The notes under the pieces were generated by a model, which had not been told where the DNA came from, ran no database searches, and saw only the letters and a list, made by a program, of their open reading frames with translations. 64,000 bases of DNA, taken from Planctomycetota bacterium. GTDB lineage: Bacteria; Planctomycetota; MHYJ01; WSZJ01. The DNA lies in NCBI GenBank assembly GCA_016190145.1, contig JACPRD010000189.1:64-64063 (forward strand). The letters run 5' to 3'. Made by a program: the position numbers and the translations under genes. Each line of letters starts with the position of its first letter. The first letter of the stretch is position 1. Below, piece by piece: positions 22,907-28,676 of the stretch.

Positions 22907-23044
22907 CTCGGAGTTTGACAAGAAATCGGCCCGGGATGCTCCATCGGCCGGCAAGTGGGTTCCCGGTTACCGGGATCTCACGCGCCAGCCGATTCCGCCC
23001 CCCGGTCCGACCGCACCGGAGATCGAATCTGTCTCACGCTCTCA
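22907..23044. repeat. dispersed structured repeat (same family as 26812..26930 and 27226..27349) between ECF sigma and kinase genes
   Basis: CGGAGTTTGACAAGAAATCGGCCCGGGATGCTCCATCGGCCGGC and GCCAGCCGATTCCGCCCCCCGGTC match the arms of the 26.8-27.3 kb elements. The terminal GATCGAATCTGTCTCACGCTCTCA matches 26772..26795. Confidence 0.6.
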
Positions 23045-23893
23045 CGGCCTCAGCAGGTCTTCCATCTCCCGGTCGGCCTCGTCTTCGGACGACGCGTAGT
23101 CCCTGATCACGTCCCGGAGGACCTTGCGCATCTTCGTGCGGCACACGGAAAGGTAGTGCCGGACCTGCGTATGGCTCAGCTTGAGCTTCTCCGCGATCTC
23201 GCGATAGGTCGGGGCCCCGGGTTCGGGCGTGGTCCCGGTCGCGGCGGCGGGCAGCAGCTCGTCGAGGCAGTACGCGCGGAAAACCTCGAGATAAACGCCT
23301 TTCCCCTCCTTCTCCAGCTCCTGCCGGACCTTGAGCAGCGCCGCCTCGAACACCGTGCGGAACCACTCGCGGTCGTAAGCGGCTTCCGGCGTGTCTTCGG
23401 ACGGGCGATCGCCGATGCGATCGACCTCCTCCGGCGCCATCTCGAGCGGCACCAGCGGCTGTTTCGGCCGGCGCGCGCGGTCGGCGCGGTCGGCGTCGAT
23501 GAGGAAGTGCTTGAGAGCCCGCTTGAGGTATCCGCGGAAGCTGCCCTTCTCGGGCCGCATCCGGGCGATGTACCCGTGCTCGAGCACGTGGGCGAAGAAC
23601 GCCTGGGTGAGGTCCTTGGCGTCTTCGACGTCCTTGTGCCAGGCGGTGCGGACGTAGGCGTAGACGGGTTTCCAGTAGGCGCGCACGAGGCGGTCGAGGC
23701 AGCCGGCGCAGTCCGGGTCGGCGGGATCCGCGGCCGAGAGGACGTCGGACCAGACGGTGGTCGGGAGTATGCGGCCCGGTCCTCCGAGGGCCGTGTCCGG
23801 CGGATCCATGAAGCTCTCCGGTGTGGCGGTGCTTGCCGGAGCGTACACGACCCTACGCGGGAGGCACAAGGCGCGCGTATCCGGAGTCTTCAT
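23042..23893 (-). CDS. ECF-type RNA polymerase sigma factor (kinase-associated subgroup)
   Basis: Region-2-like YWKPVYAYVR...DAKDLTQAFFAHVLE and a C-terminal HTH YREIAEKLKLSHTQVRHYLSVCRTKMRKVL. Paralogue of 33900..34634. The start could instead be ATG 23809. Confidence 0.75.
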   Translation of the reverse strand: MKTPDTRALCLPRRVVYAPASTATPESFMDPPDTALGGPGRILPTTVWSDVLSAADPADPDCAGCLDRLVRAYWKPVYAYVRTAWHKDVEDAKDLTQAFFAHVLEHGYIARMRPEKGSFRGYLKRALKHFLIDADRADRARRPKQPLVPLEMAPEEVDRIGDRPSEDTPEAAYDREWFRTVFEAALLKVRQELEKEGKGVYLEVFRAYCLDELLPAAATGTTPEPGAPTYREIAEKLKLSHTQVRHYLSVCRTKMRKVLRDVIRDYASSEDEADREMEDLLRP

Positions 23894-24005
23894 AGCTGAT
23901 GCATGAATTAGCCTAAATATGCTTGCTTTTATTCTAAAAGGTGAGATAAGTAGCCATGCTATTTTGACACTAAGCGGCGCCGAACGCGAAAGGATGCTCC
24001 CTTCC

Positions 24006-25445
24006 ATGGACACCTCCCCCCTCCGCAGCTTCCTCGAGATCCCCTACGACAAGCTCGAAGAGATGAACCTCGAAATCAAGGAGGCGCGCCTGAAGCGCGT
24101 CTCCGCCGCGAAGCTCCAGGAGCAGCGGATGAAGTACCTCGCCGGCGAAAAGCGGATCAAGGCCGTCACCGTGTGCTTCACGGACCTCGAGGGCCGGCTG
24201 CACATGCTGGACTACGACAAGAAGTTCCTCCTCAAGTCCCACGACAACCTGACGTTCGACGGCTCGTCCATCCGCGGGTTTTCGCAGCAGAAGGAGTCGG
24301 ACCTCCGGCTCAAGGCCGACTGGTCCGCGTTCTACTGGCTGCCGGCGGACGTCTTCGGCCCCGGGAAAGTGCTGGTCTTCGGCGAAGTCCTCGAGCGCGA
24401 CGGCACGCCCTACGCCGCCGACATGCGCTCGAGGCTCAAGATGTTCACCGACCGCCTCTTCGCCAGACAGGGCATCGAGGCCCACGCCGCCAACGAGATC
24501 GAGGGGTTCCTGTTCCAGGGGAGGCACTCCGAGCGCCGCTACTACGAAACCGGGAAGTTCGAGTTCGTGTCGACCGGCGGGTACTACCACTCGCTTCCGG
24601 GTGATCCGCTCCGGAGATTCATCGACACGGCCGCGGAGGTGCAGCGCTCGATGGGGTTCGCCAACGAAAAGGACCACCCCGAGGTCGCGCCTTCGCAGTT
24701 CGAGATGAACTACTCGTATACGCAGGCGCTGATCGCCGCCGACCAGGTGCAGCTTTACAAGCTTGTGTGCCGCCAGGTCGCCGACCGCATGGACATGACG
24801 GCGTCGTTCCTGCCCAAGCCCGTGACCGGCGTGAACGGAAACGGGATGCACACGAACCTCTCGGTCGCGAAGGGCGGCAGAAACCTCTTCTATGACAAGA
24901 ACGGCCAGGACGGCCTCTCGAAGCTGGGCTGGCAGTTCATCGACCGCCTGCTCCACAACGCGAACGACATCTGCCTCGTGCTGAACTGCAGCGTGAACAG
25001 CTACCGCCGGCTCGACCCGCATTTCGAGGCGCCCAACCAGATCAAGGCGTCGGCGATCGACCGCGGCTCGATGGTGCGGATCCCGCTCGGCAACGAGCGC
25101 ACGGCGCGCACGGAAGTGCGCTCGATCGCGCCCGACGCGAACCCCTACCTCGCGATCTACACGCTTCTTGCGACCGGCCTCGAGGGCCCCGAGGCGCCGC
25201 CCGCCGAGAGCGACAAGCGCGCGCGCACGCGGTTCCTGCCCGACAACATCCACGACGCGATCCGGCTGTTCAAGACGAGCCCGTTTGCGATCAAGCTTCT
25301 GGGTGAAGAGGTGCACGGGAAGTATGCGGAGCTGAAGTGGGCGTCGGCGGAGCGGTGTCCGAAGGCGCTGGGGTCGGTGATCAAGGCGGCGGAGGTGCAG
25401 TTCCATCACGAGGTTACGAACCAGTTCCTGTGGAACCTCTTCTAA
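24006..25445 (+). CDS. glnA: glutamine synthetase family protein
   Basis: Beta-grasp N-domain (VCFTDLEGRLHMLD) and catalytic domain motifs (NEIEGFLF, HPEVAPSQFEMNY, NGNGMHTNLS, NSYRRL). ATG 24006 with AAAGGA upstream. Confidence 0.85.
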   Translation: MDTSPLRSFLEIPYDKLEEMNLEIKEARLKRVSAAKLQEQRMKYLAGEKRIKAVTVCFTDLEGRLHMLDYDKKFLLKSHDNLTFDGSSIRGFSQQKESDLRLKADWSAFYWLPADVFGPGKVLVFGEVLERDGTPYAADMRSRLKMFTDRLFARQGIEAHAANEIEGFLFQGRHSERRYYETGKFEFVSTGGYYHSLPGDPLRRFIDTAAEVQRSMGFANEKDHPEVAPSQFEMNYSYTQALIAADQVQLYKLVCRQVADRMDMTASFLPKPVTGVNGNGMHTNLSVAKGGRNLFYDKNGQDGLSKLGWQFIDRLLHNANDICLVLNCSVNSYRRLDPHFEAPNQIKASAIDRGSMVRIPLGNERTARTEVRSIAPDANPYLAIYTLLATGLEGPEAPPAESDKRARTRFLPDNIHDAIRLFKTSPFAIKLLGEEVHGKYAELKWASAERCPKALGSVIKAAEVQFHHEVTNQFLWNLF

Positions 25446-25487: not shown

Positions 25488-25524
25488 GTTTCGTTCTTCG
25501 TTACTCGTTACTCGTTACTCGTTT
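25488..25524. repeat. tandem heptamer repeat TACTCGT x3 with degenerate flanks, downstream of glnA
   Basis: gtttcgttcttcgttactcgttactcgttactcgtttcg. Confidence 0.65.
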
Positions 25525-25689
25525 CGCGGGGGCGCACGCGGACGGGCAAGCAGGTCGGGCGGCCGCGTTGAGTTCGCCGGGCCGGACCGCGAGCGTCAGC
25601 GCGGAGCCGGAATTCTCCTGTTGAAGTTGCTCTTTTCGGTTTTGCCTTTCGCCGACCGACCACCCCTCGACCTATACTCGCCTCTCGCC

Positions 25690-26247
25690 ATGTCCGACCG
25701 CGCCCTCGTCGCCCGCTGCCTCGACAAAGCCCCCGGCGCCTGGGAGGAGTTCCTCGCGATCCACCGCGGAACCCTCGCCTCCGCCGCCGGCGCGGCGTTG
25801 CTGCGGGCGCAGGGAAGCGCCCCGCGCGCGGACGTGGACAACGCGGTGCAGGCGGCGCTCGTCGAACTGCTGCGCGACGGCAACGCGGCGCTCCGGGCCT
25901 GGCAGGGCCGCGCCTCGCTCGCCGGCTACCTCAGGGTCATCGCTTCGCGCGTCGCGCTCAATCAGGTCCGGGGCGAGCTGCGGAAGGGATTTCTGCGGTT
26001 CCGGCCGCTGGACGGCGCGCCGGAGCCGGCCGCGCCCGAGGCCGGGGACGCGGCGGACGTCGAGGCGCTGCGGGCCGCGATGGAGCGGCTGCCGGCGCGG
26101 GAGAAGCTGATCCTGAGCCTGTTCCATTTCGACGGCGCGACGTACGCGCAGATCGCGCGCGTCATGGGAATTCCGGCGGGCTCGGTGGCTCCGACGCTCA
26201 TGCGGGCGCGGGAGAAGCTGCGGGGATTGATAGGAGGGTCGACATGA
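25690..26247 (+). CDS. ECF RNA polymerase sigma-70 family factor
   Basis: 185 aa. The sigma2 region and sigma4 HTH (REKLILSLFHFDGATYAQIARVMGIPAGSVAPTLMRAREKLR) are present. Confidence 0.8.
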   Translation: MSDRALVARCLDKAPGAWEEFLAIHRGTLASAAGAALLRAQGSAPRADVDNAVQAALVELLRDGNAALRAWQGRASLAGYLRVIASRVALNQVRGELRKGFLRFRPLDGAPEPAAPEAGDAADVEALRAAMERLPAREKLILSLFHFDGATYAQIARVMGIPAGSVAPTLMRAREKLRGLIGGST

Positions 26248-26639
26248 GCGCATGGATCCGGCCGTTGTTCGTGCTCGCGGGAATCTACGACGGCGGCCTC
26301 GGCGTTGCGTTCCTGTTCTTCCATGCCGCCATCTTCGCGCACTTCGGCGTCACGCCTCCGAATCACGCCGCCTACGTGCAGTTTCCGGCACTCCTCCTGA
26401 TCCTGTTCGCCGCCCTCTTCTTCCAGGTGGCGGCCGATCCCGCCGCGAACCGGAAGCTCATTCCCTACGGCGTCGGCCTCAAGGCCGCCTACTGCGGCAC
26501 GACGTTCTGGTACGCGGCCGCCGCCGGCATCCCGTCGATGTGGATGCCCTGGGCCTGGGCGGATCTTGGCTTCCTGATCGTGTTCGCGGTCGCGTGGGTG
26601 AGGCTCGGCGCGGCGGCGGGGGCGAAGCGCGCCGAATAG
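26244..26639 (+). CDS. hypothetical membrane protein, translationally coupled to the ECF sigma gene
   Basis: ATGA overlap with the sigma stop. Four hydrophobic helices. GC3-rich. Confidence 0.6.
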   Translation: MSAWIRPLFVLAGIYDGGLGVAFLFFHAAIFAHFGVTPPNHAAYVQFPALLLILFAALFFQVAADPAANRKLIPYGVGLKAAYCGTTFWYAAAAGIPSMWMPWAWADLGFLIVFAVAWVRLGAAAGAKRAE

Positions 26640-26653
26640 CTTCGAGGCCCGCC

Positions 26654-27349
26654 CGTTCCTCGTTACTCGTTCCTCGTTTCTCGGGAGCGAAAGCTGAGAG
26701 CGTGAGAAAAAATCGATCTACGGTGCGGTCGGACCTCGCTCGCTTCGCGAGCTCGCCCCGACCGCGCCTGCGATCGAATTTTTTCACGCTCTCAGGAAGT
26801 GCTTTGCCCACCAGAGTTTGAGAGAAAATCGGGCCGGGGGGCGGAGTCGGCCGGCTCGTCCGACCCTGACCATCAAGAGCCCTCTCGCCGGCCGACGGAG
26901 CATCCCGGACCGATTTTCTCTCAAACTCTGAGGAGGAGAAGGAGGAGGAGCAGGAGGAGATCGTCCCACCGAGGCCGTTCCTCCTCCTGCTCCTTCTCCT
27001 CCTCCTTCTACTGGGCTGTTTCAGAACAACCGGCCATTTTCAGGTGGCGTGAGAATAGCCTGGTGTGGCGGCTTCGGAATCGGGGGAAGCGCGAAGCCCA
27101 AGGGCCAAGAAAACGCACAGACGGTCAATCCCAAGCCCCAACTCGGGCCGACTCCGATCCACGACTTGGGGTTGAACCTCTGTGATTTGGGAGTTTACCT
27201 GGCCCTTGGGCATCAGCGCTTCCTCCGGCCGGGGGGGCGGAGTCGGCCGGCTCGTCCAGACTTTGTCAACCGTGGGCCTCCCAGCCGGCCGATGGAGCAT
27301 CCCGCATCAAACGCCTTAGAGGTCCAGACCGATTTTTTCTCAAACTCTG
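26654..27349. repeat. array of at least five consecutive long hairpins / dispersed repeat copies filling a 750-nt intergenic region
   Basis: CTCGTT heptads at 26654..26683. Hairpin 26694..26795 (CTGAGAGCGTGAGAAAAAATCGATC / GATCGAATTTTTTCACGCTCTCAG). Hairpin 26812..26930 with 21-bp perfect terminal arms (CAGAGTTTGAGAGAAAATCGG). Purine/pyrimidine hairpin 26931..27008. Hairpin 27096..27211. Partial second copy of the 26812 element at 27226..27349. Confidence 0.7.
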
Positions 27350-27389
27350 ATTCCTGTATTTTTCGCGGGCCGGCCGGTGACTCCGAAGC

Positions 27390-28676
27390 ATGCCCTGCCC
27401 CGATCCCGAAACACTCGCCCGCCTCGCCGAGGGGACACTGGCAGGCGCGGAATTCGACGCCGCGCAGGCACACCTGGCGGAGTGCGAGGCGTGCCGGGAA
27501 GTCCTGCTCGTGGTGATCCCGGAGGAGAAAGGGACTTCGCGCCGCATCCCCTTGCCGCGGAGGGAGTTCCCCCGGGGTCTCGCGACCGCGGCCGCGGTCC
27601 TGGTGGCGGCCGGCGCGTTCGCGCTCAGGACCGCGCTGCCGGAGAAGAAATCAACGGCCGCCCCCGAGCGTCTCGCCCAGGAGTTCAAGCCGCAGTCGAG
27701 TCCGCTTCCCGAACCCGAACCTCCGAAGCCCGGGCCGGACGTCGAGCCCGAGCCGCCGCCCGACGTCCCGGAGCCGCCGAAGCCGGAACCGGAATCCGAG
27801 CCTCCGAAGCCCGAACCTCCCAGGCCGGAGCCTCCCCGCCCCGAACCTCCGAGGCCGGAACCTCCGAAACCGGAGCCGACCCGCGCCCTCGCCGCAGTCC
27901 GCTTCCTCGATGTCACCGGCCGCCTGTTGCTCGGAAAAACGGCCGTTAGCGACGGACGGACGACCGACCAGCTCCTGACGGCCCCCAACGGCGCCTCCTT
28001 CCGCGTCGACGGCCACCTCGTCGCCTTCGGGAAGGGGGCCTCCGCGAAGATCGCCCGCGACGGCGAGACGTACGTGCTCGACGTCGAAAAAGGGGAGGTT
28101 TACGTCGAGCCGCAGGGCGCGGCGTGGCGCGTGCGCGGCGCCGAGATGGCGCTCGATTTCGGCGCGGTCGTGACGCCCACGACCGTCCAGCGGCTGCGCG
28201 ACCTGCCGAGCACCCCGGCCGCGAATCTCCGGGCCCGGTTCCAGCCCCTGTTCCCGAAGCAGACCACGCGGTTCTTCGAGGACTTCGCCTCGCGCGCCGG
28301 GGGGTTCGAGAGGGCGGTCGCCCAGGACGGGTCGATCCTGGGCGCGCGCGTCGAGCTGCCGAAAGCCGCGCCGTACACGAAGAACCTCGCCGTCCGGTGC
28401 CGGTACCGCACGGCGGCCCGCACGCTCCAGGTCGGCCTGCACGTCCGCGGCCGCCTGGAGCCGTGGGCCGCGATGGCGGATGCGAGAGCCGGCGGCTGGC
28501 AGGAACTCACCGTTCACGGTTCCGACTTCTCGGCCGGCCCGCCCGGGGGGGAGGGGCCCGCCGACGGTGACGACGTCCTCGAACTGTCGTTCGCCATCAA
28601 CACCGCCGAGCCCGGGAGCGGGGACGCCTCGCTCGAGATCGACGATGTCAGGCTGATAGAGGAGGAGAAGCGATGA
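27390..28676 (+). CDS. putative anti-sigma factor (zf-HC2-like N-terminus, TM helix, Pro-rich linker, periplasmic domain)
   Basis: AHLAECEACREVL H-x3-C-x2-C motif, TM segment LATAAAVLVAAGAFAL, and a PEPPKPEPPRPEPPRP linker. Confidence 0.7.
   Translation: MPCPDPETLARLAEGTLAGAEFDAAQAHLAECEACREVLLVVIPEEKGTSRRIPLPRREFPRGLATAAAVLVAAGAFALRTALPEKKSTAAPERLAQEFKPQSSPLPEPEPPKPGPDVEPEPPPDVPEPPKPEPESEPPKPEPPRPEPPRPEPPRPEPPKPEPTRALAAVRFLDVTGRLLLGKTAVSDGRTTDQLLTAPNGASFRVDGHLVAFGKGASAKIARDGETYVLDVEKGEVYVEPQGAAWRVRGAEMALDFGAVVTPTTVQRLRDLPSTPAANLRARFQPLFPKQTTRFFEDFASRAGGFERAVAQDGSILGARVELPKAAPYTKNLAVRCRYRTAARTLQVGLHVRGRLEPWAAMADARAGGWQELTVHGSDFSAGPPGGEGPADGDDVLELSFAINTAEPGSGDASLEIDDVRLIEEEKR

Follow-up and report, generated by a model that had tools for sequence, protein, structure and literature searches.

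Dispersed hairpin elements stacked between a sigma factor gene and a putative anti-sigma gene in a Planctomycetota genome

Hairpin elements in the gap before a putative anti-sigma gene

The window analyzed here, a stretch of 64,000 nucleotides (nt), comprises positions 64 to 64063 of contig C168 of a metagenome-assembled genome (MAG), G000, of a Planctomycetota bacterium (5.35 Mb, 217 contigs, 68% GC, and 85% complete). In this window, a 750-nt intergenic gap extends from the stop codon of a 131-amino-acid (aa) open reading frame (ORF) at 26639 to the ATG of a 428-aa ORF at 27390, with an extracytoplasmic function (ECF)-type sigma factor gene and a small membrane-protein gene on its left and a putative anti-sigma gene on its right. 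[quoted passage not shown] The families to which its elements belong are multi-copy, recently amplified, confined to the genus, structurally constrained, biased toward gene 3′ ends and toward one strand, and able to stack.

The repeats tile positions 26640 to 27350 without a break: repeat depth is continuous there and falls to zero over 27355 to 27389. The elements, named E0 to E5, derive from different families and all lie in one orientation, on the plus strand. The folds were scored by comparing the minimum free energy (MFE) with that of shuffled sequences (200 shuffles for E1). The first element, E0 (26654 to 26681), consists of four CGTTNCT heptads and was not folded; it is a member of a dispersed family. 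E1 (26694 to 26795) is a 102-nt “double-foot” hairpin with the ends 5′ CTGA...TCAG 3′ (−67.9 kcal/mol, z −10.4), built from an A-tract, a GC stem, and a T-tract with an invariant apical core. A 16-nt linker, GAAGTGCTTTGCCCAC (26796 to 26811), joins E1 to E2 (26812 to 26930), a 119-nt hairpin (−75.8 kcal/mol, z −8.2) whose terminal arms pair perfectly over 21 bp and whose termini read 5′ CAGA...TCTG 3′ and are followed by an A at 26931. Read from the sequence, the outer ends of E2 and E1 match at 17 of 21 positions as an inverted repeat. E3 (26928 to 27036), rich in GGA/TCC, is a hairpin whose foot is CTGA and whose 3′ tail is conserved, the fold of 26930 to 27012 reaching −58.6 kcal/mol (z −6.0). 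A comparison of the flanks of 18 E3 copies revealed that the usual 5′ extension is missing from the focal copy, which is fused to E2 on a common CTGA. E4 (27054 to 27228) is an approximately 150-nt hairpin with a core at 27093 to 27214 (−59.6 kcal/mol, z −6.1); a conserved outer stem (CGGGGGAAGCGC / GCGCTTCCTCCG) extends it to about 27081 to 27227, and its conserved 5′ leader contains CGGA. The summed MFE of E1 to E4 is approximately −260 kcal/mol.

The last element, E5 (27226 to 27350), is a 5′-truncated copy of a long E2 subfamily. It ends in ...CAAACTCTGA, 39 nt 5′ of the anti-sigma ATG. Because its left arm is missing, E5 has no fold of its own (−45.9 kcal/mol, z 0.03, no better than shuffles), and its assignment comes from the direct repeats D1 to D3 shared with E2 and from 86 to 92% identity to copies on contigs C63, C152, C14, C189, and C55. 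An earlier note on this sequence, made from the letters alone, had listed six features in the gap, and all six are present where it placed them or close by, including the partial second copy of E2. Its count of at least five long hairpins holds for four strong ones (z −6 to −10) and fails for the fifth, the truncated E5.

The same note had seen no plausible ORF with the local codon bias in the gap, in agreement with the GC content at third codon positions (GC3), which is 0.52 to 0.76 in the gap ORFs versus 0.88 to 0.90 in the flanking genes; the gap is therefore non-coding. The locus was found in four groundwater metagenome DNA runs, all from one study, which may be the same samples from which the MAG was assembled. 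Logan unitigs in these runs break at repeats. In two samples, 100% identical unitigs with an organism-like depth of ~7 to 16× bridge the internal and outer junctions in six of seven cases (E0-E1, E1-linker, linker-E2, E2-E3, E4-E5, and E5-anti-sigma), and the sole stretch without an exact unitig is the 29 nt at 27035 to 27063. Since exact unitigs span six junctions, the array is not an assembly artifact. A search for related loci among named genomes returned a single distant match, in an uncultured Planctomycetota MAG.

Dispersed repeat families and their placement behind TGA stops

Whole-MAG BLAST and nhmmer searches detected ~101 E1, 66 E2, 38 E3, and 21 E4 loci, and the E0 family comprises 162 heptad arrays. 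Every element of the focal array thus belongs to a dispersed family, which bears out the earlier suggestion of a REP/BIME- or MITE-like stack. Together, the E1 to E5 loci occupy at least 0.40% of the assembly, and 76 to 87% of the loci of each family fall outside crude gene calls. Among 171 loci or arrays, only the focal one holds five elements. The focal E1 is 95 to 99% identical to ~24 other copies at unrelated loci; such identity points to a recent burst and speaks against a special-purpose region. Contig ends are no more than 400 nt away from 31 E1 loci, and this crowding indicates that the repeats break the assembly. The summed unitig depth over E1 (26704 to 26770, runs X1 and X2) is ~1,300 to 1,800, compared with ~10.6 on the unique flanks, so that E1-like sequence, in the community or as collapsed copies, is far more common than the ~101 assembled loci suggest.

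Almost every E1 copy has the conserved 16-nt linker on its right, almost every E2 copy has it on its left, and the usual mobile unit is a two-hairpin composite, E1-linker-E2, of ~237 nt with sharp ends and variable flanks. The composite also occurs in two other genomes of the genus (G006 and G002), where its stems have diverged yet still pair. A covariance model of E1 found matches in all eight genomes of the genus, its counts in the congeners being lower bounds, and in none of 38 genomes from 27 other genera; all compared genomes are incomplete MAGs. Two hybrid hairpins in G000 (C217:7078 and C120:36867) combine an E1-type left arm with an E2-type right end and indicate recombination or template switching between the two families. 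A tRNA array on contig C89 contains an E2 copy and a weak E1 copy.

Two other identities for the composite were considered and rejected. It is open from TGA to TGA in frame for 78 codons, which raised the idea of a coding, read-through, or selenocysteine insertion sequence (SECIS) element, but the copies are 235 to 282 nt long, with lengths that are not multiples of three, and their translation is of low complexity. An integron attC identity was discarded as well: the hairpin ends carry no R″/R′ core sites (RYYYAAC / GTTRRRY), and the copies are not arrayed as cassettes but dispersed, behind ordinary housekeeping genes, across >100 contigs.

When 35 E1 copies were aligned, 20 of 35 pairs showed double compensatory changes, very few pairs were broken, and the apical core, GGTCGGACCTCGC...CTCGCCCCGACC, was nearly invariant. 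The feet of the hairpins carry related tetranucleotides, namely CTGA in E1, CAGA in E2, and, in most copies of E3, CTGA before the hairpin; several E4 copies have CGGA 2 to 3 nt from the foot. The E0 arrays contain 3 to 10 CGTTNCT heptads, mostly four or five, and 136 of the 162 are intergenic; the median distance of the arrays past a co-oriented stop codon is 21 nt. Where two arrays are neighbors (31 pairs), they are always convergent and form the arms of a hairpin with a loop of 15 to 319 nt. In the window, same-strand heptad arrays at 25492 to 25526 and 26654 to 26681 bracket the sigma and membrane-protein gene pair.

The E1 copies are placed precisely with respect to stop codons. Among the 93 copies with enough upstream sequence, 31 are entered by a long coding-like ORF that ends on E1 positions 2 to 4, the TGA of CTGAGAGCG. 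Three further copies use a TGA at positions 10 to 12, and none uses the third frame. The abutted stops are TGA in 32 of 34 cases, versus 47% TGA genome-wide (P=5e-9), and an abutment of 33% was observed, ~7-fold above the 4.9% (P=4e-18) that TGA sites outside genes would predict. An example lies in the window itself, where a second, partial E1/E2-like copy on the minus strand (22911 to 23044) abuts with its edge the TGA stop of a minus-strand gene (23042 to 24013); at this copy (C168:23067, window position 23004), the sequence reads “...ctgaggccg TGA GAGCGTGAGACAG”. The focal E1 is not at a stop codon: the TAG before it is 54 nt away, and E0 lies in this interval. Of 30 E1 copies in tandem spacers, 26 point the same way as the genes and four the opposite way; the orientation of non-abutting copies is 14:4, and 14 copies lie in divergent spacers. 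No fixed distance to stop codons was found for the free end of E2, for E3, or for E4.

The idea that E1 truncates genes and donates a new stop was ruled out by the coverage of Pfam profile ends and by ortholog C termini. Six abutted genes reach the last positions of C-terminal Pfam profiles, and the stop positions of pdxA and an acyl-CoA dehydrogenase gene are also those of their orthologs in three to four congeners, where no E1 follows. The stop triplet is paired within E1 with the TCA of the other arm, and in one old copy (C161), the two have co-varied to TAA/TTA. Old, diverged solo E1 copies are still located at stop codons, and 7 of 28 E1-like hairpins sampled in G002, G003, G005, and G006 start after the TGA of a gene. 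The earlier note had named random intergenic copies as the finding that would reduce the gap to plain repeats. The copies are indeed dispersed, which largely removes a special-purpose reading, but their placement is non-random and favors gene 3′ ends.

Flanking genes and history of the locus

The ECF-type sigma factor gene (25621 to 26247, plus strand; Pfam Sigma70_r4_2) encodes a protein 61 to 62% identical to the products of sigma ORFs located directly before anti-sigma ORFs in G004 and G001. Although listed as starting at a TTG (25621), the gene probably begins at the ATG at 25690, since alignment with the orthologs sets in at residue 24 (MSDRALV...). After “...REKLR” the sigma 3′ end departs from the orthologs, where a new tail of eight codons, overlapping the beginning of the 131-aa ORF, stands in place of the last ~8 codons.

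The 131-aa small membrane-protein gene (26244 to 26639, plus strand; GC3 0.90) is inserted here and is absent from the seven congeners, and it lies outside the ancestral sigma/anti-sigma module. Its protein has 339 homologs in many phyla, none with a Pfam domain, with 55 to 70% identity across phyla. In a soil organism, a homolog is encoded immediately upstream of a gene pair for an ECF sigma and a FecR anti-sigma factor, beside a B12-binding radical-SAM gene and a second paralog (homologs at L055:3001-3396 and L056:231-626). The family may have a recurrent link with ECF sigma modules.

To the right of the array, 39 nt of unique sequence without repeat matches (27351 to 27389, plus strand) constitute a relic of the old sigma 3′ end (TGA at 27378 to 27380) and of the sigma/anti-sigma junction. 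The relic aligns with the sigma 3′ end and junction in G004 and G001, as well as with a spacer of 46 nt in L054, which is a metagenomic contig of a nearer relative. The putative anti-sigma gene (27390 to 28676, plus strand) is an intact ORF with an N-terminal HxxxCxxC motif (AHLAECEAC, read in the translation) and without a Pfam match at E≤0.001. Its residues 1 to 426 are 46 to 47% identical to the products of ORFs found 10 nt behind sigma in G001, G002, and G004. The motif and the adjacency to sigma in the congeners are the reasons for its identification, and on this basis, the gap does separate the sigma and membrane-protein genes from an anti-sigma gene, as the earlier note had read it. In G004 and G001, 10 nt separate the sigma stop from the anti-sigma ATG, and the next gene, as in the window, is a DUF1570 gene.

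At the orthologous locus, G001, G002, G004, and L054 all lack the array. In L054, a homolog of the 131-aa gene is followed by 46 nt that include the relic and then by the anti-sigma gene, with no repeats; the identity to the window is 84.5% at the nucleotide level in the ORF and 84% at the protein level in the anti-sigma N terminus. The gene upstream of the 131-aa ORF in L054 (L054:1-353) is on the opposite strand and is not a sigma gene, yet the sigma relic persists downstream; that lineage may have lost its sigma gene or moved it elsewhere.

These comparisons give a history in three steps. Ancestrally, sigma and anti-sigma were adjacent, 10 nt apart, a spacing that suggests co-transcription and possibly translational coupling. 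A membrane-protein gene was then gained approximately eight codons before the sigma stop. Finally, and in this lineage only, ~710 nt of hairpin elements filled a ~12-nt spacer just past the membrane-gene stop. It is the 10-nt spacing of the congeners, together with the intermediate state in L054, that identifies the array as a lineage-specific accretion. Sigma and anti-sigma are now parted by one gene and four very stable hairpins; read in this way, a closely coupled pair was broken apart by a foreign gene and selfish hairpins. The close and possibly translational link between the two is thereby lost, uncoupled expression being a plausible side effect of the array. The hairpin stack may well terminate or insulate transcription, as a likely consequence rather than its purpose. 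Given its intact ORF, the anti-sigma gene is presumably still expressed, whether transcription reads through the elements or starts at a promoter inside them or next to them. There is no indication of selection for, or evolution of, the array as a regulator of sigma and anti-sigma.

Mobility, rival explanations, and relation to known systems

We infer that single-strand mobility catalyzed by an HUH-Y1 enzyme fits the elements best. In a reaction like that of REP or IS200 elements, such an enzyme would bind the single-stranded hairpin, the strand would be cut 3′ of the CnGA tetranucleotide at the hairpin foot, and it would be integrated 3′ of an (n)TGA/CnGA target. This model would explain why copies abut stop codons, why E2 and E3 share a CTGA, why no target duplication is clear, and why there is a strand bias. 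Multi-copy hairpins with CnGA at the foot have been described beside the genes for class 3 Y1 proteins, which occur mainly in Planctomycetes (PMC6006769). In GTAG REPs, the ends frequently supply the TAG stop of the flanking ORF (PMC3733652), and the CTGA that supplies TGA here is the counterpart of that arrangement with another tag. Tentatively, E1 and E2 (with E3) could even constitute an undescribed long “double-foot” hairpin transposon of Planctomycetes, in which a class 3-like HUH enzyme would recognize CnGA/TGA, home to the 3′ side of TGA stops, and deliver a bidirectional terminator. If so, a stop-homing, terminator-carrying element would be able to rewire operons, as for sigma and anti-sigma here.

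Searches of the MAG and the seven congeners with PF01797 were empty and proved to be false negative for divergent Y1 proteins. A motif scan detected a lone, single-copy, and divergent ORF like those of RAYTs (REP-associated tyrosine transposases) at C145:7025-7591 on the minus strand, directly after a mutY-like gene. It contains NHVH, VWRTRYHDRI, and EYVRLNP and matches NF047646 with E=2e-13 and 50 bits, under the 80-bit cut-off, and PF01797 with E=0.08. It is followed by a ~50-nt palindrome (CTGTTTCGAGGTGCGGGCGCGCC...GGCGCGCCCGCACACCGAAACAG), present in at least 25 copies genome-wide, and by three tandem ~38-nt repeats, and the locus is a REPtron-like unit with a sixth repeat family.

Several observations weigh against mobile hairpins of this kind, or against the HUH-Y1 mechanism proposed for them. 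No cognate transposase was found, and a six-frame scan of the MAG, which is 85% complete, for the class 3 motifs (NHVH / W[TA] / YV[VI]xEQ) gave no such gene and yielded only the RAYT-like ORF, which has WR and YVRLNP. The RAYT-like gene is flanked by the other palindrome family, copies of E1 to E5 are absent from contig C145, and a RAYT homolog was detected in only one of the seven congeners (G006, where it sits at a contig end), though all seven carry E1-like hairpins. The published class 3 hairpins are 26 to 30 nt long and weakly paired (PMC6006769, supplementary Table S1), whereas those described here are 80 to 150 nt long and very stable, and a CnGA match amounts to three fixed bases only. 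The composite also resembles a MITE with terminal inverted repeats (TIRs), with 17 of 21 matching positions at its ends and a TGA on both sides. The gene statistics are based on our own crude gene calls from ORFs and GC3. Finally, the ~7-fold excess of abutment over a model of a TGA target plus purifying selection means that either a function or a longer target is needed.

Such a function is at the center of one alternative, in which the hairpins are kept as portable bidirectional terminators or as stabilizers of mRNA 3′ ends behind stops, the array being an insulator; this is possible, if somewhat doubtful, and it is compatible with either mobility mechanism. Consistently with this idea, E1 and E2, read on either strand, run from an A-tract through a GC-rich stem to a T-tract in a genome of 68% GC, copies lie at or just past stop codons in the orientation of the genes, abutment exceeds the neutral TGA-target model, the stems are kept by compensatory changes, and old diverged solo copies remain at stops. 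REPs are reported, in studies that PMC6006769 and PMC3733652 cite, to terminate transcription and stabilize mRNA. However, a consensus scan of the elements finds no canonical terminator, the run of T5-6 is located 6 to 7 nt past the inner GC stem and is itself paired, and a compensatory change in a DNA palindrome needs no RNA function. Moreover, two thirds of the E1 copies are not at stops, and some occupy the divergent spacers mentioned above.

The main rival to the HUH-Y1 model, in which a DDE transposase would move the elements as classical TIR-MITEs, the composite being one MITE with ~21-bp TIRs and a TGA duplication, is unlikely, although several features recall such an element. An IS5-family insertion sequence (IS), which duplicates a 3-bp TNA target, would be a candidate mover. 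The composite reads TGA|GAGCGTGAGAAAAAATCGATC...GACCGATTTTCTCTCAAACTC|TGA, with its GAGCGTGAGAAAAA ends matching as inverted repeats, nearly all intact composites have a TGA on both sides, and 226 TIR-like motifs are present genome-wide. A TGA target would likewise place many copies at stop codons. Solo E1 copies, in contrast, are flanked by TGA...TCA, a palindrome and not a direct repeat, and the triplet co-varies with the opposite arm in the C161 copy and hence is part of the hairpin. No parent IS was detected; the sole facing TIR pair 400 to 4000 bp apart (C105:4737-5837) encloses an NAD-dependent epimerase gene. No multi-copy transposase has been assembled, the long multi-copy segments being wrong-frame ORFs, a pseudopilin, and a sigma factor. 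The 14:4 strand bias of non-abutting copies is unexpected for double-stranded cut-and-paste.

A dedicated cis-regulatory or structured RNA (an attenuator, a processing platform, or a small RNA) that uncouples sigma from anti-sigma, as the earlier note had also proposed, is very improbable. The folds of E1 to E4 are very stable, the array sits between two regulatory genes, and the anti-sigma ORF is intact. Nevertheless, all parts of the array are copied at dozens of unrelated loci, it is missing at the same locus in the congeners and in the nearer relative, and E5 is truncated and does not fold. A search of Rfam over the gap at a permissive E-value gave no gathering-score match and only sub-threshold matches to generic microRNA-precursor hairpins. 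For this locus, the idea of a bespoke regulatory RNA is thereby removed. That the array is a repeat-induced artifact of MAG assembly is scarcely credible: although the repeats break assemblies, many copies lie at contig ends, and 27035 to 27063 lacks an exact unitig, the other junctions are spanned by exact unitigs in two samples, and both flanks have syntenic partners in the congeners.

Returning to mobile hairpins of the REP, REPIN, or MITE kind, the main interest lies in their exact, genus-wide placement behind TGA, in the two-hairpin composite, and in the link to CnGA-foot hairpins. With eight genomes, recent bursts, and old diverged copies, the genus is a clean natural data set, which could inform the site choice of REP-like hairpins, given the precise placement past native TGA stops, and could help to identify the enzyme that mobilizes the CnGA-foot hairpins of Planctomycetes, which are poorly understood. 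The repeats also break MAG assemblies and create spurious ORFs, and they should be masked by annotators of planctomycete genomes.

Among known systems, the elements share several features with the REPs, REPINs, and BIMEs of Proteobacteria, which are multi-copy intergenic palindromes, mostly downstream of ORFs, occurring singly or in clusters, with a conserved foot tetranucleotide and stems kept by compensatory change. In both cases, the tag supplies a stop, TAG from GTAG in REPs (PMC3733652) and TGA from CTGA here, and the CGTC REP families likewise have no known transposase. However, the units are 80 to 150 nt long instead of 20 to 40 nt, their arms have no internal REP-like palindrome, the foot is CnGA and not GT[AG]G or CGTC, and the main unit consists of two unlike hairpins with a fixed 16-nt linker. 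By their size and tag, the elements are not strict REP members. A BIME consists of alternating copies of one REP, whereas the focal cluster mixes families in one orientation. Unlike in a REPtron, the only RAYT-like gene of the genome is flanked by another, shorter palindrome family.

The hairpins of class 3 TnpA_Y1 (HUH) genes, which occur mainly in Planctomycetes and Acidobacteria, are atypical, and their foot is a 5′ CnGA (Quentin et al. 2018, PMC6006769); with hundreds of copies per genome, these have been called REPtron-like (PMC6006769). The 5′ CnGA foot on multi-copy hairpins is common to both systems, but our hairpins are longer, and no gene with class 3 motifs accompanies them in the MAG. 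Bacterial MITEs (Correia/NEMIS, ERIC, RUP, and the Coxiella QMITEs) resemble the elements in their length of 100 to 250 bp, terminal inverted repeats, non-autonomous nature, near-identical bursts, gene-end insertions able to supply stops, and possible terminator activity. In contrast to these MITEs, each half of the composite is a near-perfect long palindrome, and there is a strand bias relative to genes. Because a target-site duplication is not demonstrable and no parent IS was found, the elements are not proven MITEs. The E0 arrays find their closest parallel in the TAACTGA heptamer repeats of Beggiatoaceae and Cyanobacteria, of which a Beggiatoaceae genome contains 169 arrays of 2 to 6 heptads (PMC4679880). 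The E0 family is similarly made up of 162 short, mainly intergenic arrays of 3 to 10 heptads; its unit is CGTTNCT, and its arrays are located after stops and not just upstream of starts, often as convergent pairs.

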